Source: an uncultured Gammaproteobacteria bacterium (GTDB lineage Bacteria; Patescibacteriota; Patescibacteriia; Magasanikbacterales; UBA922). Taken from it: 64,000 nt of DNA. Below, piece after piece: positions 45,718 to 64,000 of the stretch; position 1 is the first letter of the stretch, and each line of letters starts with the position of its first letter. The stretch is taken from the NCBI GenBank assembly GCA_964345045.1, contig CAYFPM010000003.1:70038-134037 (forward strand), given 5' to 3'. The notes under the pieces are model-generated. The model saw nothing but the letters and a program-made list of their open reading frames with translations. It searched no databases and was not told the DNA's origin. Both the position numbers and the translations under genes were made by a program.

Positions 45718-45720
45718 TAT

Positions 45721-47368: not shown

Positions 47369-47405
47369 TATATTAGTTTTTAATCAAAAGTAGCCCTTTT
47401 AGACC

Positions 47406-47434
47406 TTGACAAATCCTCTAAAATATGGTATATT
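47406..47434 (+). promoter_or_regulatory. Near-consensus sigma70-like promoter: TTGACA, a 17-nt spacer, then TATATT.
   Basis: cTTGACAaatcctctaaaatatggTATATT lies about 85 nt upstream of the GT4 gene start. Confidence 0.5.
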
Positions 47435-47520
47435 TTTATGTTATTTTAGTGCCATATTCTTGGCTAAAAATAGACTAATTTTGCTATAAATTTAGATAAA
47501 ATACAAACCTTAATTAATAT

Positions 47521-48684: not shown

Positions 48685-48713
48685 AAAACCTCCGCATTAA
48701 CGGAGGTTTTTTG
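48683..48713. terminator. Bidirectional intrinsic terminator.
   Basis: aaaaaaCCTCCGcattaaCGGAGGtttttt. Confidence 0.7.
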
Positions 48714-48775
48714 ATACAAATTATTTGATCAAACTACCCACTACTCCCTACTCACTATACCCTAGTCCCTACTAT

Positions 48776-50809
48776 TTAAATTCCAGAAGATAGTCCGATA
48801 ATATCATCTGTCCCATCAAAATCCACATCTGCACTACGCACATCTATACCGGTTTTAAGAAGAGTTTTGTAAGCTGTTATATCTTTGTATAATTTTTTAC
48901 CACTAGCCTCAAATACTTTTATAATAGGGCCTTTGCCACTGCCCGCTCCCACTATCACCTCATCTTTGCCAACCCCGTCTACGTTACCAGCAGCTACATT
49001 TACCCCACCACGAAAACTTCGTTCAAAACCAAACCAACGATAAAGTCTACTTAGTGAATATCCCCCACCAACTTTAAAAATATTAATAGACGATTCACTA
49101 TTTTTGCCAGTACCAATTAGGATTTCATCATTACCATTGCCAGCTACATCGCCGAGCGCAATGCTATAACCATTTTTGTAATTGGTGCCAAATGGATACC
49201 ACTCTTCTACCAGTTTAAAACCATCTCTAGAATAAATTTTGATAGGAGCATTATAGCCATTACCAGGAGCAGTTACTATTTCTTTTTTACCATCGGCATT
49301 GATATCTCCTACAGCAATTTTTATTTCTCCCTTAAAATTGACCCCATACGGAAAAATTTTCATATAAAGTTCTCCATCGTCTCGCCAAGCGTAGAGCCTA
49401 TTTCTTTTCAAAGCTATCAAATCTCTTTTGCCATTACCATCTAGGTCAACATGAGCAATTTTGTCTCCCCCTTTATAATCATCTTCGAAAACAAAAAATC
49501 CATTTCTAACTTTGGTACTATCTGGACTTAAAAATCTCACAAAATCTCCATTGGTAAAGACCACATCTTCTAAAGTAGCAAAGGTTTTTAACATTACTCT
49601 ACCATCATAAGGCGCCAAAGTTTCTTCGGAAACAATGGCCCCATCGTTTATACGTGTATCTTGGGTGCCTCTTATTTTTTCGTACTCTCCTCCCAAACTT
49701 ACAGTTTGAGTACGATTGGAACTATTTACCACAGCCAAACCATGCTCATAGTTTCTCTGCCACACCCCAGCTTCAAAATCTTTTGCCCCATCCCCAGCTA
49801 CAGCCTGACCAAGACTACCCCCAAGGTCTGCATCGTATTCATCGTAATACCAAGTTTGTCCATGATCTGTATCACCAAAATCAAAAGAATAATAACCACC
49901 CACCAACAAAGCACTAGTAAGACCAAAACGCATTTTTTGATAGTCTACTTGTGAACCTTGATTAAAAGTATTGGCATTGAGAATATTTACTCTTGGGTGG
50001 GGACCTGCTTCGTGAAAATATTTATAAGTTCTCATGGTAGGACTCCAAGCTGCCGGCAAAAAATTTTCAATCATCTGGCCATTGAGTTTGTCTCTATAAA
50101 ATCTGGTAGTTCCATTTCCTACCAACCAATATTTGTCTCCAACCAATCTTCTGGTTTCGTCATAAAGAAAATTCATACCATCTCGCCAAGATTGATCTGG
50201 ATTGTTGTCTTTTTTTCTATTTAGATCCAAATCAATATCTGCCCCGGTAAACCAAGTAATCGAATCAAAAGTGTTGTCGTAAAAAACACCATCCCACAAA
50301 CCTGTAGAAAGTAATTCATAAGCTACAAACTCGGCCAAGGCTTTGTTCATTTTTTTGCCTTCTAGAGTAGGTGCCGAGGTACTCATGTTTAGCAAGTGTG
50401 CTCCTGGCCAAAAACTTAATTTTTGCCCTCTGGTATTTACAGCATACCAACGAGGATCTATTCTGGCAGCCAATTTTTGTCTCATTCTGCTTTTGCTAAT
50501 TGGTGCATTTTTTTCTATTTCTTGTGAAGTAATATACACCAACATTTTTATGTCGGGATTCAAACTTTTGATTAAATCTAATTGTCTACGACTGGTTACT
50601 TGGGTTTCCATGTCCAAAATAAGCAAATCCCATTTAGCCAATTGTCTGGCCGTGCTATCGTTTATTTGCCAATGTAAAAAATAATTAGCCTTTTGTAGAG
50701 AAGAATTATTGGCAGAAACAAAACTTGGTTGAAACAAAAAAGAGATAATTAAAGCCATTACTATAATTATCCTCTTTTTAATTTTGTTTTGATGAAAAAA
50801 TAGTTTCAT
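48776..50809 (-). CDS. Secreted protein. It has an N-terminal putative glycoside-hydrolase-like (GHL-type TIM barrel) domain and C-terminal FG-GAP/VCBS beta-propeller repeats.
   Basis: A signal peptide is present (MKLFFHQNKIKKRIIIVMALIISFLFQPSFVSA). The FG-GAP-like repeats include VGDINADGKKEIV, LGDVAGNGNDEILIG, AGNVDGVGKDEVIVG and ADVDFDGTDDIIG. Confidence 0.7.
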   Translation of the reverse strand: MKLFFHQNKIKKRIIIVMALIISFLFQPSFVSANNSSLQKANYFLHWQINDSTARQLAKWDLLILDMETQVTSRRQLDLIKSLNPDIKMLVYITSQEIEKNAPISKSRMRQKLAARIDPRWYAVNTRGQKLSFWPGAHLLNMSTSAPTLEGKKMNKALAEFVAYELLSTGLWDGVFYDNTFDSITWFTGADIDLDLNRKKDNNPDQSWRDGMNFLYDETRRLVGDKYWLVGNGTTRFYRDKLNGQMIENFLPAAWSPTMRTYKYFHEAGPHPRVNILNANTFNQGSQVDYQKMRFGLTSALLVGGYYSFDFGDTDHGQTWYYDEYDADLGGSLGQAVAGDGAKDFEAGVWQRNYEHGLAVVNSSNRTQTVSLGGEYEKIRGTQDTRINDGAIVSEETLAPYDGRVMLKTFATLEDVVFTNGDFVRFLSPDSTKVRNGFFVFEDDYKGGDKIAHVDLDGNGKRDLIALKRNRLYAWRDDGELYMKIFPYGVNFKGEIKIAVGDINADGKKEIVTAPGNGYNAPIKIYSRDGFKLVEEWYPFGTNYKNGYSIALGDVAGNGNDEILIGTGKNSESSINIFKVGGGYSLSRLYRWFGFERSFRGGVNVAAGNVDGVGKDEVIVGAGSGKGPIIKVFEASGKKLYKDITAYKTLLKTGIDVRSADVDFDGTDDIIGLSSGI

Positions 50810-50810
50810 T

Positions 50811-51875
50811 CTATTTGCTATCTTGCTTATATATTTTTAATAATTCTTCTATGTTTTTGTCCAAAGAAAAATTATCTTGGGCATATTTTTTGGCATTTTT
50901 GGCTATTTGTTTGGCCACATCGCGGTTGTGATGGATCAAACGAATCGCACTGGCCAAAGATTCGGCTTGTTCGGTAGGCACTACAACTCCGGTTTTCATA
51001 TTTTGGATCAAATCTTCTCCAGCTGCCACAGTACCAATTACTACTTTCCCAGCTGCCATAGATTCCATTATTGCCAAACTCATACCTTCCCAGAGAGAAG
51101 GTTGCACAATTATATCTATATCTAGCATAAATTTGGGCAAATTGTCAACTGTTCCGTGCCACTTTATTTTTTTGTCTATTCCTATGGATTTGGCTCTTTT
51201 TTGTAGTTTATCTTTTAAACTACCATCACCAAAAATATGTAATTCCAGAGGAATCTCTGGCAACTGAGCCAAAGCCAATAGGAGCACTTCGTGGCCTTTT
51301 TGTTTTTCCAATCTACCAATAGTTGCCAATTTTAATTTTTTATTTTGAAAGAGTTTTCCATTTAATTTGGACCAAATATTCAAAGCAATGGCATTTTTTA
51401 ATAAAATAATATTTGAATCTTCTATAAAAAAATCTTCTTCTAACTCTTTTTTTATACCTTCGGAGACTGTTATAACTTTGTCGGCTTTTTTTAGAATTAT
51501 TTTTAAATATTGTTGGCGAAAAAAATTCACTTCCTCGGATATTAGATTGTGCTGGGTGCTAAGCCAATTGATATTTTTTAATTTTTTCTTTAGTTTGTAG
51601 GCAGCCACATCTGCCGAAAACACATGAGAATGTATTATATCTGGTTGCCACTTTTTTATAAATTCTTCCAAATCTTTTAAATTTTTTTGAAAGTTGTTTG
51701 TACCTACTTTTGTTTCAATTTCTGCGTCTTGAAAAAGTTTGGCCATCTCTCCCCCACCTCGCACACTAGCAACCACCACTTCGTGCATTTGCATCTGCAA
51801 AATCTTGGCTTGCTCCAAAATAAGGTGCTCGGCTCCACCATGGGTAAATCTTGGTATTATATGAAGAATTTTCAT
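50811..51875 (-). CDS. Glycosyltransferase family 4.
   Basis: MKILHIIPRFTHGGAEHLILEQAKIL and EGMSLAIMESMAAGKVVIGTVAAG are present. Confidence 0.85.
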   Translation of the reverse strand: MKILHIIPRFTHGGAEHLILEQAKILQMQMHEVVVASVRGGGEMAKLFQDAEIETKVGTNNFQKNLKDLEEFIKKWQPDIIHSHVFSADVAAYKLKKKLKNINWLSTQHNLISEEVNFFRQQYLKIILKKADKVITVSEGIKKELEEDFFIEDSNIILLKNAIALNIWSKLNGKLFQNKKLKLATIGRLEKQKGHEVLLLALAQLPEIPLELHIFGDGSLKDKLQKRAKSIGIDKKIKWHGTVDNLPKFMLDIDIIVQPSLWEGMSLAIMESMAAGKVVIGTVAAGEDLIQNMKTGVVVPTEQAESLASAIRLIHHNRDVAKQIAKNAKKYAQDNFSLDKNIEELLKIYKQDSK

Positions 51876-51886
51876 AAAAATAAATT

Positions 51887-52003
51887 CCTCCCCTAGCAGG
51901 GGAGGCTAGGTGGGGTCAAATTATAATTCAACGCTTCCAATTCATATTGCCCCCCTCCCCGATACTTCGATCGAGGCAGGCTAGCTCCCCCTCTCAGGGG
52001 GAG
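51887..52003. repeat. Pair of related GC-rich hairpins in a divergent intergenic region. Each has a C-rich arm, a short loop and a G-rich arm.
   Basis: CCTCCCCTagcAGGGGAGG is at 51887-51905 and CTCCCCCTctcAGGGGGAG is at 51985-52003. Both are followed by a GGCTAG motif. This is unusual in an AT-rich genome. Confidence 0.45.
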
Positions 52004-52074
52004 AAAATTTATACAAAACAATTATTCTGCTATAATTAGCTAACAATATTATCTCATAAATTAGCCAAAAATCA

Positions 52075-53481
52075 ATGTTCGCAAGTGTAAACAAACAAAC
52101 AAAAAACTTAGTTATGATTATTAGTCTGATTTTGGGACTAGGAATTTTGGTAAATCCAAATGCTGGTGTAGATATTGGACTTACCGGTATTTTGGTTTTG
52201 CTCATTGCTCATATTTTTCTAAAAGAAAAAGTTATTCTTTTGTTTTTGCTAATCCGACCAACTTTGGACTGGTGGCGTGATTTGATTTTGTTTATCTATA
52301 GAGACAATGTTATCAATCTAAACGCTGCTTTTGCTATTCTTTTTTTGTTCTGGGCTAGTTTTACACTTTTTTCTTATAGACAATATTTCAAAAAACTACC
52401 TTTGAAAATTCCTATTTTGCTATTTTTTTTAGTAGTTGTAATTAGTGGTTCCCTCGGGATAAACCCTATAAACTCGGCTATAGAGGCTATCAAACTAGCC
52501 GATCTTATCCTTTTCTTTTGGCTTAGTTACATTTTGGTTTATGCAAGAAAAATTAGTAAAGCTCTATTTGTAAAAACTATTTTTGTGGCAGCAGTTTTGC
52601 CAATGTTGGCCGCTCTTTACCAACTCTTGCTAGGTTCTGGCCTGGCTACTTTTGATATTCGTGGTCGTATTTTTGGCACTCTCGGCCACCCAAATGTTTT
52701 TGCTTTTCTGGTGCTTAGCATAATTATTTTGTTTACCGATAAAAGTGTAATTAACGCCAATGACTTTTGGGAAAATAATAAATTAACTAGATTTATCATT
52801 TACTGTTTATTATTTACTTTACTCTTATTCACCTACACCAGAGTAACTCTTATTGGCCTAGCTATTTTCTTGGTTATCATTGGTGTTTACAAGTACAAAA
52901 AAATGCTTACTTGGCTAGTGGTTGGTACTGGACTTTTTTATTTAACTTTTTTTCCACTTAATAATTGGCTGGTAGACAATGCCAATGTTGATTTGTCGGC
53001 TATTCCCCTAGTTGGTCGTATTACTACCAGAAACGACGAAGCTGATTCTATTTCTTGGCGATTGTCTTTGCTCCGAGAAAACATGCCTATTATTCGTTCA
53101 CGCCCGGCTCTTGGTTATGGTTTTGGTAATTTTGAAGAAGTTTGGCGAGAGAACCGTAGTATAGAGCACCAATGGGACGACAGTGACGAAGCTCACAATG
53201 ACTATCTTAGGATCGCCCTTGAATTGGGTTTAACTGGCTTTATTGTTTATATTGCTTTTTTACTTAATCTACTTTATGTAGTTTCCAAAAAAGCTTTTGT
53301 AGATAAAAAATCTTTGCAAAAAAATATTCATCTTTTGGCTTGGGTTTTTATTTTCTTGGTGGTTAGTTTGTCGGACAACATGATCCGCCACACTCCGGTA
53401 ATGTGGATTACATTTAGCTACTGGGGAGCAGCTCTCGCCAAGAAAAAAACAGTTGATCCGGGGAGTTTTTTGAATAGTTAG
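52075..53481 (+). CDS. O-antigen ligase/polymerase (Wzy_C) family polytopic membrane protein.
   Basis: The 468-aa protein has about 12 TM helices. A periplasmic loop with ...GHPNVFAFLV..YTRVTLIGLAIF... is typical of Wzy_C. Confidence 0.8.
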   Translation: MFASVNKQTKNLVMIISLILGLGILVNPNAGVDIGLTGILVLLIAHIFLKEKVILLFLLIRPTLDWWRDLILFIYRDNVINLNAAFAILFLFWASFTLFSYRQYFKKLPLKIPILLFFLVVVISGSLGINPINSAIEAIKLADLILFFWLSYILVYARKISKALFVKTIFVAAVLPMLAALYQLLLGSGLATFDIRGRIFGTLGHPNVFAFLVLSIIILFTDKSVINANDFWENNKLTRFIIYCLLFTLLLFTYTRVTLIGLAIFLVIIGVYKYKKMLTWLVVGTGLFYLTFFPLNNWLVDNANVDLSAIPLVGRITTRNDEADSISWRLSLLRENMPIIRSRPALGYGFGNFEEVWRENRSIEHQWDDSDEAHNDYLRIALELGLTGFIVYIAFLLNLLYVVSKKAFVDKKSLQKNIHLLAWVFIFLVVSLSDNMIRHTPVMWITFSYWGAALAKKKTVDPGSFLNS

Positions 53482-53494
53482 TTTTTCAAAAACA

Positions 53495-53530
53495 AAAAAT
53501 CCAGAGATAATCTCTGGGTTTTTTGTTTGG
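53495..53530 (+). terminator. Intrinsic terminator.
   Basis: aaaaaatCCAGAGAtaaTCTCTGGgttttttgtttgg. Confidence 0.7.
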
Positions 53531-53589
53531 CATTGTTTTCTTTTGCAAAAAAACAATGTGTGAAGTGAGCTGTATATATTTGGTCAAGG

Positions 53590-53991
53590 TTAGTACTCAA
53601 GACTAATCCCCCGTTGTCCTTTTTCCCCCACATACGGCATAGGGCGAAAATAAGGTTGCGAGGTTGCAGCTGGAGGTTTTTTGCAGGTATACCACGGCTT
53701 TGGGCTATTGCCACAACGATAGATACGTGCTCCTGGCCACCTGTTACAGACCCTATTTCTATAGGTAGTAAATGCCTCCCCTTTTCTTGGAGTCATACTG
53801 ATCTTGGTAGAGTATCCTCTACTATCCCCCACATACACAGCAAAAGAACAAATGTGTGGTTTGGGCAAATGGCTTAGCGCCAATTCGTCGACACAGTGTG
53901 GTAGCCAACCGTGCAACCAATACAGTACTCCCAAAACCAAGAGCACATGGATACCTCGGATCTTTAGAGCCTCTTTGGCCAATCTGTTCAT
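53590..53991 (-). CDS. Small secreted cysteine-rich hypothetical protein (133 aa). It is the first gene of the high-GC block.
   Basis: An AAGGGAG Shine-Dalgarno precedes the ATG. The N-terminus has a signal/TM segment (GIHVLLVLGVLYWLHGWLP). The mature part contains 6 Cys. Confidence 0.55.
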   Translation of the reverse strand: MNRLAKEALKIRGIHVLLVLGVLYWLHGWLPHCVDELALSHLPKPHICSFAVYVGDSRGYSTKISMTPRKGEAFTTYRNRVCNRWPGARIYRCGNSPKPWYTCKKPPAATSQPYFRPMPYVGEKGQRGISLEY

Positions 53992-54066
53992 GTTACTCCC
54001 TTTCTTCTATCGAAGACATAGTAAAATATCAATAATTTGAGCAAATGTCAAGTATTATTTTGAAAC

Positions 54067-54095
54067 TTTTTTGGCTTGACATCCCCGCAATATAG
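54067..54095 (+). promoter_or_regulatory. Sigma70-like promoter: TTGACA, a 17-nt spacer, then TAGACT.
   Basis: TTGACAtccccgcaatatagtgcTAGACT. The -35 context TTGACATCCC is identical to the promoter at 13512. Confidence 0.45.
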
Positions 54096-54158
54096 TGCTA
54101 GACTGATCAGTCTTTCATAATTTATAGTGAAAGTAAGTTCTTTTTATTTCTACTAGCC

Positions 54159-54209
54159 GGTTGAACACGAGTTTCTAGCTTGAAGGAGGTTAGAACCTCG
54201 TGTTCAACC
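54159..54209 (+). promoter_or_regulatory. Leader hairpin with a 13-bp stem. Its loop contains a GAAGGAGG Shine-Dalgarno that precedes a 15-codon GTG uORF (54200..54247). The uORF stop overlaps the main ATG as ATGA.
   Basis: GGTTGAACACGAG...CTCGTGTTCAACC followed by aaaaaattttt. This is a possible attenuator or translational-coupling element. Confidence 0.35.
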
Positions 54210-54243
54210 AAAAAATTTTTCCAAATAGAAAAGGAAAAGAAGC

Positions 54244-55737
54244 ATGAATCACAGCTACGAAATTTGGTCCAGGCAACTGATAAACGCGGCAGACAAGGCC
54301 CTCCAAGATGTCGCTGCCCAACGAAAGCCCAACATGGGCTGGTGGCAAAGCTACTTGAAGCAATACAAGTTGCTAGGTGGAAAAACAGAAAAACTAGAAC
54401 GCTCTCCGGTGCTCGAGGCGGCCAACAATGTCTTTCATGTTTGGATAGCTCTTACCAACAGTATTCCGCTGTTGGTAGGGGTAGAGACAGGTATGGCCGA
54501 TCGCCACTACCTAGAAGCCTTTGTCCCAGACGAGTTCTTGGCGGCTATGACCGCCATCTTCTACGACATCTTGCCCCCTCACCAGAGGAATATCCTCATC
54601 AACAACCTGATTACGGCTCGTTTTCAAGAGGCTGCGACACCCTGGATTGCAGACCAGCGACAGCAGGCTCCGCAAACTCTAGAAAACACAAATATAAACA
54701 AGAGAGAAAATCTCTATCGAGAAATTCAAGCTCTTGCTAGGCTTTGGTTTGCTTCCACCAAGTTCGATCCTTTACCTCAGGCCGCTATCCAGTTCGGGCC
54801 ACAGGGGATCGAGCTAGATGCCACTCGATCGGAAAAAGTTGCTCACAATCTTTTGGCCAGTGAATTTGGTTTTGGTCCGGGTGGAGACCCCGAACCAGAA
54901 CACCGTCGCTGGGCCAAAAGGGTGATTGCCCAGTGTCGACACCGGCATCCTTGGGCTAGACCAGAGCGACTCGAGCGCTACACCGATGCCTTGCAGACGG
55001 TTCGAGACTACTATATTGGCGAGGATTCTGGAGAAGCTAGCGAGAAAATCCGTGATCAGGCCGAGAGGATGATGAGTTCTTTTGGTCTAGATGACGATTT
55101 TGCCTTGATCATGATCTTGGCAGAAGCTTTGGCACTAGCCACTGACTTTTTCTTGCACCCCAATATGTCGAACGAAGACAGGCTACGGGTGGTAGAGCAC
55201 ACCACTTACCAGCAGCTAATTCACAATGAGCTGAACCAACACGAGTGGCGAGTGATCTTGCATACTTTCTTGAGCATTGCCAGCAAAGGATCTCCTCTGG
55301 GAGTTCTTCGTATCGAACAGCTAGATCCGGATCTAGAAGAGGCATTGCAAACCAGGTTCAGAGCTATGGCTCTCATGTTCATGAAGGATCATGACTACAC
55401 GGTCAAAGAACCTCTGCACGTCTTGGCCGAACAAAAAGCCAACAGCCGTATGGCCAAAGCCAAACGTTTGGCAATGAGCAGCTTCTGGTGGGTCTTGCGC
55501 TTTGTACCGGTCTTGCTTTTCTCACGCGACCGAGCCAAGTTTGCTGCCAAGTGGCAGGAACTGCGCTCTATCTGGGGTCTACCTCCCAAGCCAGTCGAGG
55601 AAGTGGTAGAGACAGAGGCTTTGCCAGAGTCGGCCGACAAGACTGATCCTACAACAGAGGATGTAGAGACCACCGGCGATGTTGCCGAGGTCATCCCCAT
55701 GCGTTCTGCGGTTGGGGATCGTCCTTCCGAAAAATAA
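54244..55737 (+). CDS. Hypothetical soluble 497-aa protein of no recognisable family (elevated G+C).
   Basis: The long ORF is in a different frame from the Arg-rich overlapping ORF 54180..54740. Tandem terminators follow it. Confidence 0.65.
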   Translation: MNHSYEIWSRQLINAADKALQDVAAQRKPNMGWWQSYLKQYKLLGGKTEKLERSPVLEAANNVFHVWIALTNSIPLLVGVETGMADRHYLEAFVPDEFLAAMTAIFYDILPPHQRNILINNLITARFQEAATPWIADQRQQAPQTLENTNINKRENLYREIQALARLWFASTKFDPLPQAAIQFGPQGIELDATRSEKVAHNLLASEFGFGPGGDPEPEHRRWAKRVIAQCRHRHPWARPERLERYTDALQTVRDYYIGEDSGEASEKIRDQAERMMSSFGLDDDFALIMILAEALALATDFFLHPNMSNEDRLRVVEHTTYQQLIHNELNQHEWRVILHTFLSIASKGSPLGVLRIEQLDPDLEEALQTRFRAMALMFMKDHDYTVKEPLHVLAEQKANSRMAKAKRLAMSSFWWVLRFVPVLLFSRDRAKFAAKWQELRSIWGLPPKPVEEVVETEALPESADKTDPTTEDVETTGDVAEVIPMRSAVGDRPSEK

Positions 55738-55751
55738 TTAGCTAGTAGTTT

Positions 55752-55848
55752 GGTACGAATAGTATTCGTACCTCCCATTCCTTTTGTTCTAAAATTTTTA
55801 GACCAAAAGCAAATAAAAAATCCTGAGTTACACTCAGGATTTTTTATT
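55752..55848. terminator. Tandem terminators between convergent genes.
   Basis: GGTACGAATagtATTCGTACC with a T-rich tail is at 55752-55790. aaaaaaTCCTGAGTtacACTCAGGAttttttatttc is at 55815-55848 and is bidirectional. Confidence 0.65.
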
Positions 55849-55980
55849 TCTCACTAAAACTTTTTTGCAAAGTTTTACTGGGAAGGTACGCCGGGCCGGA
55901 GCAGCTACTCGAGTTTCATCCGAAGATGATCCAAGAGAAGTGCTCCGGCCCTGGTTTAGGCGCGGACGATGAGAAGCTTG

Positions 55981-57957
55981 CTACGGACAGCCGTCGTCAG
56001 GCACACCGTTGCAGTCGTTGTCGTACCCCAGGTCGGCCGGGTTGGCGGGATCGCTCTCGCACCACTCGACCGCCCCAGGATGGTTCTGGAAACCCGTCGG
56101 GGTATCGTCGCAGTCACCACCGAGCAACTGAGAGACCGGAATCGAGCTGTTGCTAGACCCTCGACAAGGCGACACCTCGCAGTAGCCGTCCCCGTCGTCG
56201 TCCCAATCGTCCGCCGTGCCGTCGCTCTGCGGACCACCGTTGGCACCACTGGCACCATACGGCGTCCTACCGCGCTGATCCACGTAGGGCGCGCACAAGT
56301 TGCACGCCCAGTACGAACCGGCGGGGCAGGTCTGCTGCTGGGTGCAGCTACCACCCGTGGCCACGCACATGTCGGTGACCTCGTCGCAGACCTGACCGGC
56401 ACTGCAGGTGACCACAGTGCCCGACTGGCAGGTACCGCTCTGGCACGTCTCCGTTCCGTTGCAGTACGAACCATCGTCACAGTCCGCGTTCACCGTACAC
56501 TGCGGCGGAGCCGCGGCGCAGTCGGGATCGTCTCCGTCGACGAGCCCGTCGGCGTCATTGTCCCAGTTGTCCGTGCAGTTGCCAAAGGCCTGGGTCTCGG
56601 GCTCGAAGGCCCCATCCCCGTCGTTGTCCTCGGCGCTGGTACAGACGTGACCCGTGGGCGTGGTCGTCGCAGTGTTGGTCGACGAACAGCCCCAGAGGAA
56701 GCCGGCCGGCAAGTTCGCCGGGGTGCGGTTCTCGAGGGGAGATCCGTTCCCGGTGATACCAGTCGGCGTCTGCATGCATTCTGCGTCCGAGGTCGGACCG
56801 TTGCAACAGTCGGGAATCCAGGACTGAACGCACTGACCGTTGACCGCCCCGTGCGTGGTGCACGCGTTGTTGTCGGCACAGTCCACGCACTGGTTGCTCT
56901 GGCAGGCGAAGCCCACCGCACAATCCGCATCCGTGGCACAGCCCAAGCACGTACCGGCCGTCACCCCCGAGATGTCCGAACACACACCGCTGGCGCAGTC
57001 GTTGTGATCGTCACAGCAGAGGGGGTTGGTGCTGGCCGTGTTCACGCAAGCGTGATTCACGGCGTTGTCGGTGGTACAGGCGTCGCCGTCGTCGCAGTCG
57101 AGAACCGTACAGATGTTCGCGGTGCAAACTTCGTCGGTACGACAGTGGGCGTCCACGAGACACTGCTCGCAGGTACCCGCCGCCGAGGTCGAGGTCTCGG
57201 TACAGAACAAGCCGTCTTGGCACGGAGCCGAGGCAGGCGCGGCGTTGCAACAGTTGGGAATGGCCTGGTTCACGCACCCCATCGTCCCGACGGTGTCCGT
57301 GGTGCAGGCGTTGCCATCGTCGCAGCCGGTGCAGGTGTCGGTGGTATCATCGCAGTACTCGGTAGCGAGGCAGGCACTGGCGCCGCTCTGGCAGGTACCG
57401 GAGACCATGTCGCAGGTCTCGGCACCGTTGCAGAAGAGGCCGTCACTGCAGTCCGCGTCCGAGAGACAGCTGACGCAGCGATCGCCCGCCTCGTCGCACA
57501 TCTCGGTGGCGGCACACGGAGGCGCGGTCACTTGGCAGGTACGTCCGGTGGTGGACGTCCCCACGCAGGTGGCGCTCCCGTTGCAGAAGAGGCCATCGGC
57601 CCCGCAGTCCGCGTCGGAGAGGCACTGACAGCTGATCCCCTCGTCGACATTGCCATCGCAGTTGTCGTCGATACCGTTGCAGATCTCGGTGGCGCCGGGG
57701 TAGACGTTCGGGTTGTGATCGTCACAGTCCGGAGGCCCATCGACGATGGCTCCATCGTTGCAGTTGTTGTCGTAGTACGTCTGATTCGGAGAACCGTCGC
57801 CGTCGCTGTCGATGGAGTTCTTGTCATCGCAGATGTGGACACGGACAGTGCCCGAAACGTTGACGAAGTCGGTACCGCAAGCCGTGAGGCCCGCGGTGAG
57901 CAGGAAGGTGAAGAGAGACAGACAGAGTCGCTTGGCTTGCGCCATGGTGACCTCCAA
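55981..57957 (-). CDS. Cys-rich repeat lipoprotein (658 aa). It carries Myxococcales-type cysteine-rich repeats and MopE-like putative metal-binding motifs. G+C is very high, roughly 65-70% by eye.
   Basis: A GGAGG Shine-Dalgarno lies 6 nt upstream. The lipoprotein signal is MAQAKRLCLSLFTFLLTAGLTAC. Recurring motifs include DCDDHNPNVYPGATEICNGIDDNCDG, CxSDADCxDGLFCNGxETC and CDDGNACTTDxxxxxxC. Confidence 0.8.
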   Translation of the reverse strand: MEVTMAQAKRLCLSLFTFLLTAGLTACGTDFVNVSGTVRVHICDDKNSIDSDGDGSPNQTYYDNNCNDGAIVDGPPDCDDHNPNVYPGATEICNGIDDNCDGNVDEGISCQCLSDADCGADGLFCNGSATCVGTSTTGRTCQVTAPPCAATEMCDEAGDRCVSCLSDADCSDGLFCNGAETCDMVSGTCQSGASACLATEYCDDTTDTCTGCDDGNACTTDTVGTMGCVNQAIPNCCNAAPASAPCQDGLFCTETSTSAAGTCEQCLVDAHCRTDEVCTANICTVLDCDDGDACTTDNAVNHACVNTASTNPLCCDDHNDCASGVCSDISGVTAGTCLGCATDADCAVGFACQSNQCVDCADNNACTTHGAVNGQCVQSWIPDCCNGPTSDAECMQTPTGITGNGSPLENRTPANLPAGFLWGCSSTNTATTTPTGHVCTSAEDNDGDGAFEPETQAFGNCTDNWDNDADGLVDGDDPDCAAAPPQCTVNADCDDGSYCNGTETCQSGTCQSGTVVTCSAGQVCDEVTDMCVATGGSCTQQQTCPAGSYWACNLCAPYVDQRGRTPYGASGANGGPQSDGTADDWDDDGDGYCEVSPCRGSSNSSIPVSQLLGGDCDDTPTGFQNHPGAVEWCESDPANPADLGYDNDCNGVPDDGCP

Positions 57958-58437
57958 TCAAAGCCAGCTTCTCGAAAGATGCTGACGAGTTACAAGTTCT
58001 GGCGCCCCGGAATGGAGCTCCACAATCGTGGTGCCTTGTCCCAGGCGCCTCGGGTCGTTGGGCAGCTAGGTAGCCATCCGCAGAGTTTGGTTTTTTTGTA
58101 GTCATAGAGAGTGCTAACGAAAGATCCAAGTGGTAATAGAAAAAGATACTTCTAATCCACTGCTTTACGCTCAGTATGACTAATTAACAAAAACAAACTC
58201 TGCAGACAACTTGCCTAGCAAAATCTTCTCATCGATTGTAATGAACAATCGTGTCTACTGTTTGAGTAGTGACACATAAAATATTTAGTAAACAACTAAC
58301 TATTTTATCTATCACAACTTTTTTACAAACTCTCTTTTGCCTTCAAACTTTTTTTAAAAGCACAAGAGAATTCGAGGTGTGGGCAGGGCACCTCTTCGAA
58401 CCGAAGTCCGAAGAGGGCCTGCCCACTGAAGCAAGAA

Positions 58438-58851
58438 CTACTGATCGATCGTGACCGTGGTCTGACCACTGTCGCGATTGACGTAGGCGTCGAGGTCGAG
58501 CTCGACCTCGGTCTTGCGGTCGAACCCACCGTTGGCCGCAATGGCTCCCACGGTGATGGCACCGGCGAGCAACAACACGCCGATGCCGATCGCGATCCCG
58601 ATGGTCGTGTTGTGCTCGCGCACGTCACGAGCCACGACGTCCTCGGCCTTGCGGCTCTTCCTGACCCGCTCCACGCACTTGCCGTACTCGGCCTTCTCGG
58701 ACGGATCCGAGAGGTTGAGCGGCACGCACACCGCCTCCGGGCTGGGGAGCCCGGCGGTCGGCGAACGCGGCGTGGTGGCGCAGCCCGAAGCGAAGACCAG
58801 CATGCAGACGAAGATAGAGACGAGACTGTAGAAGAAGTTGTTGTTCTTCAT
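58438..58851 (-). CDS. Glycine-zipper (2TM-type) lipoprotein.
   Basis: An AAGGAG Shine-Dalgarno lies 7 nt upstream of the second ATG. The lipobox is LVFASGC. The C-terminal IGIAIGIGVLLLAGAITVGAIAANGG is a glycine zipper. The start overlaps the stop of the upstream gene. Confidence 0.7.
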   Translation of the reverse strand: MKNNNFFYSLVSIFVCMLVFASGCATTPRSPTAGLPSPEAVCVPLNLSDPSEKAEYGKCVERVRKSRKAEDVVARDVREHNTTIGIAIGIGVLLLAGAITVGAIAANGGFDRKTEVELDLDAYVNRDSGQTTVTIDQ

Positions 58852-58868
58852 GATCTGGTTCTCCTTAT

Positions 58869-59837
58869 TCATCGCACGCCACCACGAACCGCAGTCCGCA
58901 TGCTTCGACGCTCGGCTTCGGCCGCGGTGGCCTTCTGCTCGAGGTTGTCGATGCGGATGTTGTCCCGGTTGTGACCGCTACGCAACAGAGTGATCGCATC
59001 CATGATCGACACGGTATCGGCAGCCCTGGCGGTCGCCTCGTCGACGAACGTCTTGTCCACGGCCGCGGCTCGCGCCTTGGCCGCCTTGGCGTTGGCAGCG
59101 ATCTTGGCCGTATTGGCCTTGATCTCGGTGTCGAGCGCGGTGTGAACCGTCGCCACGTCGCCACGAACCACCGCTTCGCGGGTGTCCGTGTAGGTCTTGG
59201 CGACCCGCTCCGTCTTGTCGATCTTCTGATCGGTCTCCATGTCGTGGAGCTTGCCCGCGAAGTAGGAAACCGTGAAGCCGAACGCGACGATGCCAGCCAG
59301 AGCGCCGATGACGCCCCAGCTCTTGCCACTCGACCACGAGTTCTTCATCTCGGCGCGGGTCTGCGCATCGATGAAGTCCCCGCGCAGGTCTCGCACCTCG
59401 TCGCCGAGGCGCTCGACCTGTCCGATGCGGTGCTGCGACAAGGTGTCGAGCTCCACGCCGTCGCCACCATTGCGCCCGTAGCGCTGCTGGGGACGGCTGG
59501 CCGCATCGAGCTGGTCGCCGAGCGCCCGCTCGGCCACGCCGATGTAGCGCCCGGCCAAGTCCGCGGTCAAGCGGTCGTGGCGCGGCTCCGGCACCTGCAG
59601 ACGAACCTGCGGCAAGTCCACGTCGACCGTGGGCCGCTGGGGCTCTCGGTCGACCACCACCGGCTCACGCCGCGTCGGCCGCTCGCCGACGTAGGTCTCG
59701 TCGATCTGGTCACGGTAGACCGGACCGCCGAAGTGGTGGTGATGCTGGTGCTCGTGTAGCCCTTGGCGTCGAGCGTCGTCGAAGGGATCCTGCCGGGTCC
59801 CGGGGTTCATGTTCAGTTCGGTTGCGTCACCGGACAT
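58869..59837 (-). CDS. Hypothetical bitopic membrane protein. It has a His-rich disordered N-terminal domain, one TM, and an Ala/Lys-rich coiled-coil C-terminal domain.
   Basis: An AGGAGGAA Shine-Dalgarno lies 6 nt upstream of the ATG at 59837. The His-rich tract is HEHQHHHH. The TM is WGVIGALAGIVAFGFTVSYFAG. The gene is co-transcribed with the downstream lipoprotein, overlapping it by 4 nt. The longer ORF-track N-terminus runs into AT-rich promoter DNA. Confidence 0.65.
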   Translation of the reverse strand: MSGDATELNMNPGTRQDPFDDARRQGLHEHQHHHHFGGPVYRDQIDETYVGERPTRREPVVVDREPQRPTVDVDLPQVRLQVPEPRHDRLTADLAGRYIGVAERALGDQLDAASRPQQRYGRNGGDGVELDTLSQHRIGQVERLGDEVRDLRGDFIDAQTRAEMKNSWSSGKSWGVIGALAGIVAFGFTVSYFAGKLHDMETDQKIDKTERVAKTYTDTREAVVRGDVATVHTALDTEIKANTAKIAANAKAAKARAAAVDKTFVDEATARAADTVSIMDAITLLRSGHNRDNIRIDNLEQKATAAEAERRSMRTAVRGGVR

Positions 59838-60364
59838 GGTGTTCCTCCTAGTCCGATCAAGTGCCCGAGAAAAAATCTCAGGCCAGGTTGTAAGTACTAG
59901 CGAAAAATCCGCGCTGCAGGGCATGCCTAGCAGACATGCTTGTCTGGCTACTGCCAGGCATCCCCACAACGGGGGTCCTCTACAAACACGGTTATTAGCT
60001 ACAAAATTTGCAACCAATATTCCGTGTTTGTAAAAGTAGTTCTTGCTTCTTGTAAAGAACCGTGTCAACTATATTTGTGACACCTGAGATATACACCAAA
60101 TTGATATATATTTCAATAGGCACAAAAAACCAATAAAGCATTTTTTAACATCATATAATAGCACATTTTAACAAATTTGTCAAGACTCTTATTAACTAAT
60201 TATTATATTTGTGTGTCTTAATTTTTGTTAAAAATTTGCCTAATTTTAGCTATTTTTACAAGACCTTTTGTCCACAATAATTATTCTGAACAAAAGGAAG
60301 TGGCGGCACTCTGTAGTATCTCTACTATAGAGTGCCGCAAAAAAATGAAGCAGTGTGTGAGGCT

Positions 60365-62617
60365 CTAGCTAGAGCTACCCCCACGAGACGGCCACGGAGA
60401 CCTAGAACCCAATCCAGTCCCCCTAGAGCTATGCTCATCCAAGGCGGCCTGGGACTCCGGATCCAGATCCGTCGACAGACTCACCTCTCCGTTACTCGGA
60501 GCAGAATCGTCGGTATCCCACGAGGGCCTAGGCGTCACCACCGTCTCGGGCAGATCCCGAGGCAGAGCCTCTCGCAAGGGAGGCTCCGGGTCTTGCCCAG
60601 CGTCTCCCGACGATGAGGGCAAGTCCTCGGTGGTTACCTCCGGGTCAGTCTCCTCTGCCGGCGAGGGCAGACGGAACTCCGGAGCATCCAGCCCGAAGGT
60701 ACCTTCGAAGTTACTGATACCGGCAAGCAAGACATCGATCTCGTCGCCAGTACTGCGTTTGAGCTGCTTGGGCATCTCACCAGTCCAGCCCTGGCTCCGC
60801 AGCCAGTCCTCGTTCGGTACGCAGCCGTTCTGGGCCTCTTCGCGGCTGGGCCACGAGAGCGGCCAGCGCGGCAGCTTCTGATCCCCGGCCAAGGCCATGG
60901 CCTCCATGGCGAACACCCTGGAGAGAACATCGGCCAACGAACCTTCGTAGCACTGCTGAGCGTACCGCCGAATGAGGTCGTAGGACACCCCCGGACTCTT
61001 GGACAGAGCTCGGTAGACCGGGTTCAGAAGGCACATCTGAACCGCCTGAAGCATGGTTGGGTAGACCTTGGTACGCAGTTTATCCACAGCCTTGCGAGCG
61101 CGCTCGATGGCCTCCGTGGGATCGACCCAATCGAGAGACTCGAGAGTCTCACGATCGAGATGCCAGGGCCTCTGCCCCAACGTCTCGAGAGGATCGCTCT
61201 TGACCGGCAGGTCGCTGCGCCACGGGGGCACATGGTAGCCGTCGGCCTCCAGCTCTTGCTTGGCCAGGAGAAGCTTCCGTAGGACATCGCCCGGGCCGTC
61301 TTCTCGTTGCCAGTGCTCCGAGAAGGCCTGCTCGAGCTGTGCCGTAGTCTGGCAGTTGCCTTGCGGCGACTGCTGCCCGACCCGACCGATGCGCCACTCG
61401 TGGTAGTTCATGAGAGCCTTCGAGGCTTCTGCCTGGAGGGTCAGATACTTCTTCTCCTCCGGACTCATGAACAGGTACTTCCAAGTCATGGCCTTGTAGA
61501 CCAAGAGCAGAAGCACCACCGCCATGGCGAGGCCAAGGATGACCCAACGGGTCTCTTGGTCTACCTTGCGCAGCTCGGTGAGAGCCTCACTCGTGTCGGA
61601 GTAGCCCCCCTGGTACCAACGCTGATCCGGCTTCTCGGCCTTTACCAGTGCTGCCAAGTCCATGGCCTTGAGCTCTTCGAGCTTGGCCTGGAACTCGGCT
61701 TCCAGCTTGGCCAGAGCCTCTCGCTTGTCCTTGGTATGCTTCTCCTCGAGACCGGGCGTCTCGGCGTCGAAACCAGCCAAGATCGACTCGGTCTGGCCTT
61801 CGTAACTGTCTTGACTCCCGGCTGCGGCACCCGCTGCTCCAGAGAGAGCGGCAGCCGCCGCGGCTCTGGCCGAAGCGATCGAGGCGATAGTGCTGGTACG
61901 GGTACCAGCCCAACGCGCCGAGCGCATGGTCCGACGAGCCCGACGACCTCGAGCCTTGGCACCGGCTCGCCGACGCCGCTCGATTTGGTCCTTGGTAGCT
62001 GCTCGATCCGACTGAAAGGCGGCCTTGGCACCAGCAAGCTGGCCCTCGGCCGCCGTGATCTGGGGCTCGTACTCGGCCTTGATCTTGGCTTCGGCCGCCG
62101 TACGGAGTTCGAGCTCGATCTTGTCGTTCTGAGCGGTCATCCAGCGATCGATGTCGCTTTGGAAGATGGCCATCTCGAAGTACTTGGCAAACCCAAACTG
62201 GATGATGAACACCACAGCGATGTAGACCAGATACTTGAACTTGCTTCCCGAGCTTACTCGCCAACTGTCTGGGCTGGCGATGTAGATGGTTCGGTGCAGA
62301 GCGGCGATGGCAGCTGCCACGAGCAGGCCTGCCAGAATGGCAATGGCCAGCTGCGTGTACAGCCCGTACTGATCCAGGAAGAGGCTCACGTACTTCGCGG
62401 CTCCCACCGCATCATACGCAAACAAGACGGCGAGAATGATGGTGGCGCCCACGAGGACACCTTCCATCTTCTCGGTGATCTTGTCGAAGCCTTTCCGAAG
62501 GAGGAACGGGTCAAAGGGCTTCTTGCCCAAGTTGTCGGTGTTGTTGGTATCCACGAAAGAACCTCCCTTTCTGTGGAGATCGGTGCAGTAGAGACAAATC
62601 GCCTCAAACTGCTTCAT
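60365..62617 (-). CDS. Large hypothetical membrane protein of about 750 aa. It has N-terminal TM helices, a long Ala/Arg/Glu-rich coiled-coil, an internal TM, a C-terminal globular domain and an acidic Pro/Ser-rich tail.
   Basis: The ORF is 60365..62803, with a GTG at 62803 in AT-rich DNA. I chose the first ATG (MKQFEAI, 62617) but the start is uncertain. G+C is above 60% by eye. Confidence 0.6.
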   Translation of the reverse strand: MKQFEAICLYCTDLHRKGGSFVDTNNTDNLGKKPFDPFLLRKGFDKITEKMEGVLVGATIILAVLFAYDAVGAAKYVSLFLDQYGLYTQLAIAILAGLLVAAAIAALHRTIYIASPDSWRVSSGSKFKYLVYIAVVFIIQFGFAKYFEMAIFQSDIDRWMTAQNDKIELELRTAAEAKIKAEYEPQITAAEGQLAGAKAAFQSDRAATKDQIERRRRAGAKARGRRARRTMRSARWAGTRTSTIASIASARAAAAAALSGAAGAAAGSQDSYEGQTESILAGFDAETPGLEEKHTKDKREALAKLEAEFQAKLEELKAMDLAALVKAEKPDQRWYQGGYSDTSEALTELRKVDQETRWVILGLAMAVVLLLLVYKAMTWKYLFMSPEEKKYLTLQAEASKALMNYHEWRIGRVGQQSPQGNCQTTAQLEQAFSEHWQREDGPGDVLRKLLLAKQELEADGYHVPPWRSDLPVKSDPLETLGQRPWHLDRETLESLDWVDPTEAIERARKAVDKLRTKVYPTMLQAVQMCLLNPVYRALSKSPGVSYDLIRRYAQQCYEGSLADVLSRVFAMEAMALAGDQKLPRWPLSWPSREEAQNGCVPNEDWLRSQGWTGEMPKQLKRSTGDEIDVLLAGISNFEGTFGLDAPEFRLPSPAEETDPEVTTEDLPSSSGDAGQDPEPPLREALPRDLPETVVTPRPSWDTDDSAPSNGEVSLSTDLDPESQAALDEHSSRGTGLGSRSPWPSRGGSSS

Positions 62618-62899
62618 TGTGAAATCGGACGGAAAACCGCCCCGAATTGGGAATCCGAGGTAACGGCTTCCACAATTTTTGGCTTGTAATCCACATAAGC
62701 CAAAAATTGTAAAAGCCGATCGGTAAAAAACCGTCCAAACATTATAAAGAACTCCGCTTTGGGTACAATTGTCCCACTTTAAGCGAACGGATAAAGATAC
62801 CACAAAATCAAACTTTTGTCAAGATTTTTTGCTAAATTTAGCTAAAATAAGCAAAAAACGCCCAAAGTAGGACGTTTTTATACTTGTTTAAATTGTTTT

Positions 62900-64000
62900 C
62901 TAGGCTGCTTTTGGCAAAGCAGGCTCTTTTCTAACCAATTGCATCTTGTCGTCTACCACCTCTACTTCGGCCAAAAATGATTCTGTCCCATCTACTGATT
63001 CTACCAAAAATCCTGTTTCCCCTGCCGGAGCCGGTTTGAAATTGTAGTTTTTGTCGTAGAAAAAACTTTCTCCTACATTTTTATCCCAAAACTTAATGGC
63101 ATGAGATCCTTCTGGAACAGCAAAATAAGGATCATCTTCGGTTACGCCTCTTAAGAAAATTTTAGATTCTGCATCCAAGTTTTTGAACGTTGCCAGCAAA
63201 TTTTCTGTTGGACTTTTGCTAGTATCGATTTGCATTCCAGTAAATACTGAATCCTCACCCAAACTTAATTTTTGGAAACGTAGAGCTTGTTCAAAACTTT
63301 CGGCAATTGATTTGGCTTTGTCACTAGCATTTAATTTTATATCTCTAAAGGTAGCCATATCGTTGTCTACTTTGGATATATAAGCTTGTTCGGCTTGGCT
63401 GTAACCAGATGCCATCTCTGCCCCAGAAGCAGCTGCTGGTTCGGCCGGCTCGGCTGCTGCTTCGGCTTTTGGAGTAGCAGTTTCAACTATTTTTTCGGTG
63501 CCATATACTCCACCACTACTTTGTGCCAAATCTGTTGTATCTGCAGCAAGAAAATCTTTTTCTTTGGCTTCGTCCAAACTAACTTCTTCTTGACCTACCT
63601 TTACCTCTGCTTCTCCGAGAGGTTCTTTGACAATTAATTCCGAACCGCCGGTTAATTCTAATTTTGTTCCATCGGCACTTAATTTCAAATGACCAATTAT
63701 ACTACCGTCTTTGGCAAAGGCAGCCCAATCGGCTTGGTCTACAGCGCCAACTCTGCCACTGTATAATCTACCAACCTGATCAATCCCCGCTTCGGTAGGG
63801 ACAAATCTAGCAATTCCATCTGTTCCTACTTCTTGGTTTACAGCAATTCCGTTGGCAAATTCTTGTGGAATTTTGTCTCCTTTGTATACAAAATTAGCGC
63901 CTCTTGATTCATCTGGTAATATAATTTTTTTATCACCTTGAACAATTGTATCCCTATAAAATTGTTCGGACAGATCTCCTTTTAGATCTAGATTACCGCT
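62900..64000 (-). CDS. Hypothetical protein, partial (the 5' end lies beyond the window end). It is low-GC and host-like.
   Basis: The reverse-complement frame is open from 64000 down to the stop at 62900. The ORF-track start at 63688 is only an internal TTG. The product is hydrophilic with Ala/Glu/Pro-rich linker regions. Confidence 0.6.
   Translation of the reverse strand, partial: SGNLDLKGDLSEQFYRDTIVQGDKKIILPDESRGANFVYKGDKIPQEFANGIAVNQEVGTDGIARFVPTEAGIDQVGRLYSGRVGAVDQADWAAFAKDGSIIGHLKLSADGTKLELTGGSELIVKEPLGEAEVKVGQEEVSLDEAKEKDFLAADTTDLAQSSGGVYGTEKIVETATPKAEAAAEPAEPAAASGAEMASGYSQAEQAYISKVDNDMATFRDIKLNASDKAKSIAESFEQALRFQKLSLGEDSVFTGMQIDTSKSPTENLLATFKNLDAESKIFLRGVTEDDPYFAVPEGSHAIKFWDKNVGESFFYDKNYNFKPAPAGETGFLVESVDGTESFLAEVEVVDDKMQLVRKEPALPKAA

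Follow-up and report, generated by a model that had tools for sequence, protein, structure and literature searches.

The window analysed here, a 64-kb stretch of DNA that forms part of a 229,673-bp NCBI contig, carries a block of six open reading frames (ORFs) between positions 53590 and 62554 in which the coding DNA is compositionally foreign to the surrounding genome and the DNA between the genes is AT-rich and host-like. The block occupies the variable end of a cluster of envelope-glycan genes, with a Wzy-type gene on one side and the gene for a giant membrane protein on the other. An earlier note, made from the sequence alone, had described it as a self-contained six-gene module. That description fails, because the genes of the block fall into two composition classes and make up at least four transcription units, spread over both strands, and it gives way to a mosaic of independently wired foreign cassettes. 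We propose, with a probability of about 0.55, that the mosaic arose through piecemeal horizontal acquisition of high-GC transcription units at a preferred locus, which would be a new form of horizontal acquisition. Foreign high-GC DNA is indicated by the composition of the proteins as well as of the DNA, by a common codon dialect, by sharp segment edges, and by a solitary cassette of the same design 12 kb away.

GC-rich cassettes in an AT-rich genome

Outside a few patches, the window has a GC content of 30-39% per kb, and the host genome lies at ~33-36%, which corrects an earlier figure of ~30%. The host-like ORFs in the window (n=37) have a GC content at third codon positions (GC3) of 0.272 +/- 0.040, with a range of 0.18-0.36. 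The GC3 values of the block ORFs lie outside this distribution, as the following list shows, with z-scores calculated against the host-like ORFs.

53590-53991, minus strand: small Cys-containing protein of 133 aa with an N-terminal hydrophobic anchor; mid-GC (GC 0.47, GC3 0.46, z 4.6)
54244-55737, plus strand: 497-aa protein with one hydrophobic segment and an acidic C-terminal tail; mid-GC (GC 0.51, GC3 0.55, z 7.0)
55981-57945, minus strand: MopE/Cys-repeat lipoprotein of 654 aa with 76 Cys and lipobox LTAC (GC 0.65, GC3 0.81, z 13.4)
58438-58872 (or 58438-58851), minus strand: 137/144-aa lipoprotein with lipobox FASGC and a C-terminal transmembrane (TM)-like segment at residues 93-111 (GC 0.63, GC3 0.89, z 15.4)
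58869-59837, minus strand: 322-aa bitopic protein with a His-rich N terminus, one TM-like segment, and a coiled-coil C terminus (GC 0.67, GC3 0.85, z 14.4)
60365-62554, minus strand: 729-aa polytopic coiled-coil membrane protein with a GTG start and four TM-like segments (GC 0.61, GC3 0.75, z 11.8)

The earlier note had counted all six ORFs as GC-rich, but only four of them are strongly so, and the two mid-GC genes (53590-53991 and 54244-55737) belong to a different codon class. Relative synonymous codon usage (RSCU) in the four high-GC genes correlates negatively with that of the host (r -0.53 to -0.62), compared with r 0.83 for host genes against pooled host RSCU, and places these genes outside the host distribution, as the note had expected. 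Among themselves the four genes agree closely (r 0.81-0.92), and so have one codon dialect in common. GC at the first and second codon positions (GC1 and GC2) is likewise elevated in the block ORFs and their proteins are enriched in Gly, Ala, Arg, and Pro, which means that the bias lies in the proteins and not only in synonymous codons. The GC bias of the block genes is therefore old enough to be inscribed in their products, and points to their evolution against a GC-rich background. Facing the GC-rich genes are long antisense ORFs, the largest of 710 aa (55969-58101, which encodes the 710-aa product, 58971-59759, and 61307-62689, all on the plus strand). We rejected these as a by-product of stop-poor GC-rich DNA that could mislead gene callers, and the phase of GC3, the lipobox, and the Pfam match show that the genuine frames are those on the minus strand.

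Fine-scale GC profiles and change-point analysis delimit three GC-rich segments in the block, of ~1.6-2.4 kb each.

55878-58090, minus strand: segment A, 2.2 kb, 64% GC, consisting of a 145-nt leader, the MopE-like gene (55981-57945), and a hairpin (55878-55980)
58373-59978, minus strand: segment B, 1.6 kb, 64% GC, consisting of a 141-nt structured leader, genes 58869-59837 and 58438-58851/58872, and a hairpin (58373-58437)
~60300-62700, minus strand: segment C, ~2.4 kb, with the 729-aa gene (60365-62554) and a 3' hairpin (60300-60364)

The edges of A and B are abrupt, with a GC shift of ~0.3 within 60 nt, and fall 141-145 nt 5' of the start codons and 65-103 nt 3' of the stops; the edges of C are more gradual. 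GC-richness is thus not confined to the ORFs, as had been thought, but also covers the leaders of A and B, with a structure score of z -5.4 for the leader of B, and the hairpins that follow the stops in all three segments (z -4.8 in A, -7.5 in B, where the hairpin is perfect, and -5.9 in C). These hairpins lack a good T-run. With its leader, ORF or ORFs, and hairpin, each segment resembles a transcription unit minus its promoter. The segments are separated by AT-rich spacers of 260-320 nt with cores of 21-41% GC, so that the contrast first described between foreign coding DNA (GC3 z up to 15.4) and host-like spacers is confirmed. The accompanying argument that amelioration cannot explain the pattern also stands, because intergenic sites would be expected to decay about as fast as GC3. 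The spacers and the regulatory sites predicted in and near them are as follows.

53490-53528: host-style bidirectional terminator
53992-54243: AT-rich divergent promoter spacer, 33% GC
54051-54023 (minus strand) and 54076-54104 (plus strand): putative back-to-back TTGACA promoters of the divergent pair, TG-extended
55811-55849: host-style bidirectional intrinsic terminator common to the convergent 497-aa and MopE-like genes
58091-58372: AT-rich spacer upstream of segment A, 21-40% GC, with the palindrome GTGTC-N15-GACAC at 58251-58275
59979-60300: AT-rich spacer, 21-41% GC, with a promoter (60183-60155) and the palindrome GTGTC-N12-GACAC at 60062-60083
60183-60155, minus strand: putative promoter of the 322-aa operon, TTGACA-17-TATTAT, TG-extended
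62701-62899: AT-rich spacer with a promoter (62822-62794) and the terminator-like site of the upstream giant gene (62879-62854)
62822-62794, minus strand: putative promoter of the 729-aa gene, TTGACA-17-TATCTT, TG-extended

A sigma-70 consensus scan found 17 promoter-like sites, compared with 5.4 +/- 3.0 in shuffles, and two of the three spacers 5' of the segments hold TTGACA/TGn-extended promoters. The TTGACA promoters and host-style terminators that the earlier note had read in the spacers were recovered in this way, except in front of the MopE-like gene, for which the scan gave no promoter. The promoter at 60183-60155 resembles a host promoter at 47405-47443, and the spacer in which it lies has an 11-bp inverted repeat abutting the GC boundary. 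The A-rich arm style of the terminator at 55811-55849 is also seen at 53490-53528 and in L010, a locus from another genome that is described below. When compared, the spacers showed neither a common sequence nor terminal repeats, and an origin from elements resembling miniature inverted-repeat transposable elements was rejected; they also bear no signature of mobile elements. A riboswitch or other structured RNA in the leaders or GC patches was likewise rejected, as no Rfam family reached its gathering score anywhere in the window, and the matches at 53-64 kb and 43.1-43.9 kb were sub-threshold and attributable to chance.

Two palindromic features of the spacers deserve mention. The motif GTGTC-N(12-15)-GACAC, which was picked after seeing the sequences, occurs exactly twice in 64 kb, where 0.2 occurrences would be expected, once in the AT-rich spacer 5' of segment A and once in that 5' of segment B, and may serve as a shared operator. 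A 51-nt near-perfect palindrome at 54167-54217, with GAAGGAGG in its loop, lies between the plus-strand promoter and the start of the 497-aa gene and could be a hairpin in the 5' untranslated region or an operator.

DNA of this kind is not limited to the block, as the earlier note had supposed, and a solitary cassette with the same organisation is found elsewhere in the window.

43321-43720, minus strand: solitary high-GC cassette outside the block, 400 nt, 62% GC
43398-43703, minus strand: 101-aa ORF, GC3 0.85, Shine-Dalgarno sequence GAGGAGG
43331-43378: GC-rich hairpin after the stop of the 101-aa ORF
43788-43760: TG-extended TTGACA promoter in the AT-rich flank
43282-43305: host bidirectional terminator in the AT-rich flank

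The identical design of this cassette indicates that single-gene-sized insertions occur in the genome from which the window comes. Its 101-aa ORF has no match in Pfam, and gene callers chose another frame, 43399-43788, over it.

Every boundary between GC-rich and AT-rich DNA in the block is independent of the assembly. Contigs from the runs ERR2281801, ERR2281802, and ERR2281803 (PRJEB17505; ENA MEGAHIT, Logan) match the window at 99.5-100% identity and span positions 42075-57449, 49695-56288, 56284-59258, 58004-59322, 58218-59059, and 59584-64000 (+3.5 kb). At the contig level, every GC/AT junction (at least six transitions) is bridged by independent contigs from three runs and two pipelines, and the sole stretch that lacks support from a second assembly, 59323-59583, lies within one ORF. 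Of the independent contig ends in the block (54331, 56284-56288, 57449, 59258, 59322, and 59584), 5/6 fall within GC-rich ORFs, which suggests that these ORFs assemble poorly, with a coverage drop or microheterogeneity there. Although such breaks are what might be expected if another organism's GC-rich DNA had been joined to an AT-rich contig during assembly or binning, an artefact of this kind is highly improbable, because contigs from other runs and assemblers reproduce every junction, and because GC-rich and AT-rich DNA alternate on a fine scale, together with promoters, Shine-Dalgarno sites, and terminators of functional appearance, in a way unlike a chimera, in agreement with the earlier note.

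Comparison of the window with the other assemblies and with protein-cluster members identified eight variants, all of them in GC-rich genes and all non-synonymous (8/8, a small sample).

57426-57518: G174R, G169D, and P143Q in the MopE-like protein
58977-59012: V276L, M279I, L284R, and S287R in the coiled-coil C terminus of the 322-aa protein, within 36 nt
Gene 58438-58872: D56E in the 144-aa protein

The four-change haplotype of the 322-aa protein was recovered in two runs, two of the eight variants lie at a contig end, and no variants were seen in the host-like DNA under the same contigs. The cassette genes appear to be under diversifying or relaxed selection in the population.

Other ORFs in the window also deviate in GC content. 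Two mid-GC ORFs on the plus strand (13602-14426, GC3 0.45, and 14548-15183, GC3 0.52, NUDIX), with AT-rich spacers around them, run opposite to the minus-strand glycan operons that enclose them. The ORF at 36541-40329 (minus strand), a 1262-aa ORFan, has 43% GC and yet a host-like GC3 of 0.30. Its raised GC is due to amino-acid composition and not to foreign origin, which makes it a useful internal control. The giant ORFan proteins might hint, as no more than a guess, at a Patescibacteria-like host.

Predicted envelope proteins of the block

Most products of the block are predicted to be envelope proteins, as the earlier note had proposed: there are lipoboxes in the MopE-like and 137/144-aa proteins, TM-like segments in the 322-aa protein (one) and the 729-aa protein (four), and an anchor in the 133-aa protein. 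The GGAGG-type Shine-Dalgarno sequences that it had noticed were also found, with the starts of two genes shifted to ATG 57945 and GTG 62554. The 133-aa and 497-aa proteins have no match in Pfam, PHROGs, NCBIfam, or PADLOC, and the single-sequence AlphaFold model of the 497-aa protein, with a pLDDT of 37, is unusable. Across the block as a whole, the products of the GC-rich segments appear to be near-orphans, and orphan status is established for two of the block's proteins.

For the MopE-like protein, the ATG at 57945 is the preferred start, with a GGAGG-type Shine-Dalgarno sequence 7 nt upstream. The MopE motif first recognised by eye is borne out by a match to PF11617 of 48.1 bits (cut-off 27; E 1.4e-12) at residues 77-106 of the 658-aa translation from a TTG start. 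The 885 database matches to this protein are at the level of the repeats only, cover 3-63% of the query, and come from Bacteroidota, Planctomycetota, Myxococcota, and Desulfobacterota. The protein resembles the MopE-related and Dictyostelium-type Cys-repeat proteins of Myxococcota, Planctomycetota, and Bacteroidota in its CNGxDDDCDG-type motif (PF11617), its CxDxNxCTxD-type repeats, and its 76 Cys with a lipoprotein signal. It differs from them in that the repeats alone match, in having neither an orthologue nor a type IX secretion system (T9SS) or MYXO-CTERM sorting domain, and in being compositionally alien to its AT-rich host genome. A donor among Myxococcota or Bdellovibrionota, which had been anticipated, finds no backing here, since the repeat matches come from many phyla and the relatives of the 729-aa protein reach at most ~27% identity.

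Segment B is a two-gene operon in which the stop codon of the 322-aa gene overlaps the ATG of the lipoprotein gene (ATGA), an arrangement that fits an operon moved intact. An alternative start for the lipoprotein, ATG 58851, is preceded by AAGGAG. The 137/144-aa protein has the topology of a u-spanin, with an N-terminal lipobox and a C-terminal TM segment, and matches PHROG 456, 'Rz-like spanin', weakly (E 1.9e-4, 22 bits). A u-spanin identity is not supported: the family match is not convincing and no holin or endolysin is encoded nearby. To judge by topology and motifs only, the cassette products are most likely to modify the cell surface, perhaps affecting how the cell attaches to a partner cell or phage or is recognised by one.

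The DUF4407-like family and the giant gene

The start of the 729-aa protein at GTG 62554 is preceded by AGGGAGG 7 nt upstream and agrees with the ENA gene call. The NCBI record instead gives 812 aa from GTG 62803, reading through the promoter, and the 729-aa call of ENA is more plausible; a 42-aa ORF (62614-62742) has also been annotated in the leader of the gene. In a word-indexed search of 5.8 billion clusters, the sole match to the 729-aa protein was itself. An exhaustive HMMER (phmmer) search of 1.84 billion representatives returned 13 colinear relatives with 22-27% identity and E values of 1e-11 to 8e-4, and all 13/13 match PF14362 (DUF4407), with a best E of 2e-28. The 729-aa protein itself has no match to the Pfam DUF4407 hidden Markov model at E <= 0.1 or E <= 0.01, but hhalign aligns it with the family over 542 columns with a probability of 99.9% and E 1e-34, at an alignment identity of 18-23% to the relatives. 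Profile comparison therefore places it as a very divergent member of a DUF4407-containing family. It is like DUF4407 (PF14362) proteins in its N-terminal TM helices, long helical hairpin, further TM helix, and helical C-terminal domain, and unlike them in falling short of the Pfam model and in its low identity to every relative. Its AlphaFold model (pLDDT 74) shows the long helical hairpin, and fold searches returned generic helical matches only. The DUF4407 family has no known function, and papers in which DUF4407 is mentioned give none.

We compared the genomic context of the family gene in the window and at the loci of six relatives (L008, L009, L010, L011, L012, and L014), with the following GC3 values.

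Window: family gene 0.75, neighbours 0.27
L008: family gene 0.85, neighbours ~0.50
L010: family gene 0.72, neighbours 0.32-0.49
L012: family gene 0.68, neighbours 0.45
L011: family gene 0.60, neighbours ~0.50
L014: family gene 0.60, neighbours ~0.51
L009 (58% GC genome): family gene 0.78 (66% GC), neighbours ~0.66

The neighbours of the family gene are housekeeping genes (ATP synthase, FtsZ/NrdR, FtsH/RRF), with no mobile elements. At five of the relatives' loci no homologue of the other block proteins stands beside the family gene, which removes the support that co-occurrence of the six genes elsewhere would have given to a module. The giant gene next to segment C, by contrast with these proteins, has a counterpart.

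62900-64000, minus strand: 3' end of the giant membrane protein gene (at least 1550 aa), of host composition (GC3 0.29), which runs past the window in L004 (giant gene at 1-4653 of that locus)

Of the relatives' loci, L010 resembles the block most closely. In L010, the DUF4407-like gene abuts a gene of host composition (3192-9947; GC3 0.72 vs 0.32) for a 2251-aa protein that lacks a Pfam domain and is homologous to the giant protein of the window (BLASTP, 27% identity over 568 aa, E 2e-34). The DUF4407-like proteins of the window and L010 are ~22% identical, and their genes are oriented differently with respect to the neighbouring giant gene. As far as can be judged from these sequences, the DUF4407-like gene is evolutionarily linked to the giant gene.

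The regions upstream of the family gene were also compared. The DUF4407-like gene is preceded by a spacer of 151-415 nt that is among the most AT-rich gaps of each locus, and TTGACAA(A) is found 5' of the gene in 6/7 contexts (the window, L009, L010, L011, L012, and L014; the maximum in shuffles was 4). In L010, this spacer (305-719, 415 nt, 42% GC) holds back-to-back consensus promoters that separate the DUF4407-like gene from a second GC-rich (70%) ORF (2-304, minus strand), which encodes a Pro-rich, collagen-like N terminus (GKDGKDGRDG) and has a perfect TTGACA-17-TATAAT as its putative promoter. A specific likeness between the promoter and leader in L010 and the promoter of the 729-aa gene was considered and rejected: it ranks top in the window, yet with a score of 29 vs 27 it reflects the promoter consensus only.

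Origin of the cassettes

In the piecemeal acquisition that we propose, the recipient would have taken up at least four short pieces (0.4-2.4 kb), whose source was a single high-GC organism or several of closely similar composition. Each piece would comprise a whole gene or small operon, flanked by a GC-rich leader and terminator hairpin of its own, but lack a usable promoter. The pieces would have settled in AT-rich DNA of the recipient, with recipient-style terminators (two of them bidirectional) close by, and for three of the four a sigma-70 promoter of recipient type (TTGACA, 17 nt, TG-extended -10) lies just upstream and may drive expression. The mid-GC pair (53590-55737) would be a separate acquisition, older or from another donor, and the preferred site would be the end of the glycan cluster between the Wzy-type gene and the giant gene. 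We infer the separate arrival of the pieces, the recipient origin of the spacers, and the use of the promoters from the arrangement of these elements. The GC-rich leaders and hairpins, together with the abrupt ends, are better explained by foreign physical fragments than by codon selection. As general background, genomic islands and transferred genes are reported to account for up to 13% of the length of the genome in groundwater bacteria of ultra-small size (PMC12455944).

The block has the atypical composition of a classical genomic island (GC3 z-scores 4.6-15.4), and is also like genomic islands in its deviating codon usage, its surface and envelope cargo, and its position in a variable polysaccharide and surface-protein region. 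It differs from them in having no integrase (among the called genes at 42-57 kb and in the block), tRNA, or flanking repeats, in that its foreign DNA comes in gene-sized pieces alternating with AT-rich promoter spacers and not as one tract, and in having no detectable donor although that DNA is unameliorated. Phage morons, from the work of Hendrix and colleagues, are reportedly autonomous promoter-ORF-terminator units of deviant composition. The cassettes resemble these in having a promoter, one or two ORFs, and a terminator, in a composition unlike that of their neighbours, and in apparently having been added singly; the unit is complete in the 43.3-kb cassette and in segments B and C, and the promoter of A was not detected. 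Unlike morons, however, the cassettes lie outside a prophage, with no phage genes and no convincing PHROG match, and their promoters belong to recipient-like DNA and not to the inserted piece. Integron arrays are similar as tandem one-strand series of heterogeneous gene-sized units, each followed by a perfect or imperfect palindrome. In contrast to these, the block proteins and the genes called at 42-57 kb contain no integrase domain, the hairpins and spacers have no sequence in common, and thus no conserved attC-like core, and the units have their own promoter (not detected for segment A), whereas integron cassettes are promoterless. An origin as a defence system was rejected for want of a match in PADLOC and NCBIfam, and a phage origin because PHROGs gave one weak match, searches of phage records and, with the 322-aa protein, the 497-aa protein, and the DUF4407 family, of viral contigs were empty, and the neighbours are glycan genes.

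Several findings weigh against piecemeal acquisition. No donor was found, the 729-aa protein matching only itself in the word-indexed search of 5.8 billion clusters and only its 13 distant relatives among 1.84 billion representatives, and the database search returned no full-length homologue of the MopE-like protein, even though an unameliorated gene is expected to have a close relative somewhere. Phage and plasmid collections were empty save for a 74-nt match of the MopE motif to a Sandaracinus plasmid, and a viral-contig collection, queried with the 322-aa protein, the 497-aa protein, and the DUF4407 family only, gave no match. There is no integrase or transposase among the called genes at 42-57 kb or the block proteins, no tRNA or rRNA in the 64-kb window, which speaks against a tRNA as insertion target, and no flanking direct repeat or common end motif around the segments. 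The DUF4407-like gene exceeds its neighbours in GC3 in 7/7 contexts (+0.09 to +0.47), strongly in four, and its pairing with the giant gene recurs, with the GC contrast, in a distant lower-GC genome, which chance insertions do not predict. This family-level GC excess stays unexplained by the mosaic.

The excess would be expected if the cassettes were instead long-standing, vertically inherited residents with a high GC content actively maintained against AT pressure, an explanation that we regard as unlikely. The giant and DUF4407-like genes would then be an ancestral pair, with coding bodies and short flanks held at 60-70% GC within 33-45% GC genomes. Candidate forces are GC-biased gene conversion through frequent recombination at a surface locus, selection on the DNA or RNA (such as rare-codon expression control or the evasion of an AT-targeting nuclease), or a targeted process so far undescribed in bacteria, such as GC-biased conversion or repair confined to the locus, or repeated copying of the genes from a GC-rich partner organism. 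Maintained GC would account for the adjacency of the two genes in two distant lower-GC genomes (GC3 0.75 vs 0.29 and 0.72 vs 0.32), for the excess in every context, and for the absence of a donor from very large databases, and the four changes within 36 nt seen in two runs could be a conversion tract. However, we know of no process that keeps GC3 at 0.75-0.89 against a background of 0.27, and the effects reported for biased gene conversion in bacteria amount to a few percent. The untranslated flanks are GC-rich too and have sharp ends, which argues against selection at the codon level, and unrelated genes have the dialect in common, on the basis of RSCU for the four block genes and of GC3 only for the 101-aa ORF. 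The differing orientation of the gene relative to the giant gene in the window and L010, and the small GC3 excess in mid-GC hosts (z ~1.4-2.2, computed from the GC3 tables), also count against it.

Slightly more doubtful is in-situ xenologous replacement at a hotspot, in which the locus is ancestral and its coding bodies have been overwritten repeatedly by alleles of a GC-rich partner or neighbour that owns homologous genes, with the native promoters and spacers left in place. This would reconcile the kept adjacency with unameliorated GC and low identity across lineages, and it is consistent with the preserved native promoter spacers, with the clustered and wholly non-synonymous variants of the cassettes, and with the presence of the family in a 58% GC genome, where the gene has 66% GC (L009). 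Alleles of 33% and 65% GC nevertheless offer no obvious substrate for homologous recombination, the leaders and hairpins moved with the ORFs, so that the exchange would not have been allele-precise, no partner genome was found, and the 43.3-kb cassette has no known ancestral counterpart.

Still less probable is the transfer of one ~7-kb block from a single GC-rich donor, followed by replacement or invasion of its intergenic regions by AT-rich promoter DNA. The three contiguous segments on one strand, with their common codon dialect, are compatible with such a transfer, but it requires three separate secondary events that each brought a promoter, while the spacers have no common sequence, terminal repeats, or mobile-element signature, and the same design is seen in the solitary cassette 12 kb away and in L010.

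If the cassettes were captured piecemeal, they would show with unusual clarity how, in nature, foreign genes of extreme composition that lack a promoter gain expression, as short fragments that survive only where they are placed behind native promoters. If the source was a single GC-rich organism, this low-GC bacterium could be its physical partner, live on it as a host, or prey on it. If GC is instead maintained against AT pressure, the cassettes would challenge the amelioration model that is used for dating horizontal transfers. The recurrence of the DUF4407-like gene with the giant gene, and its GC excess in every context, turn a one-off oddity into a testable pattern, behind which may stand an insertion or replacement hotspot that is conserved and linked to giant surface proteins, or else a process that keeps particular genes GC-rich.

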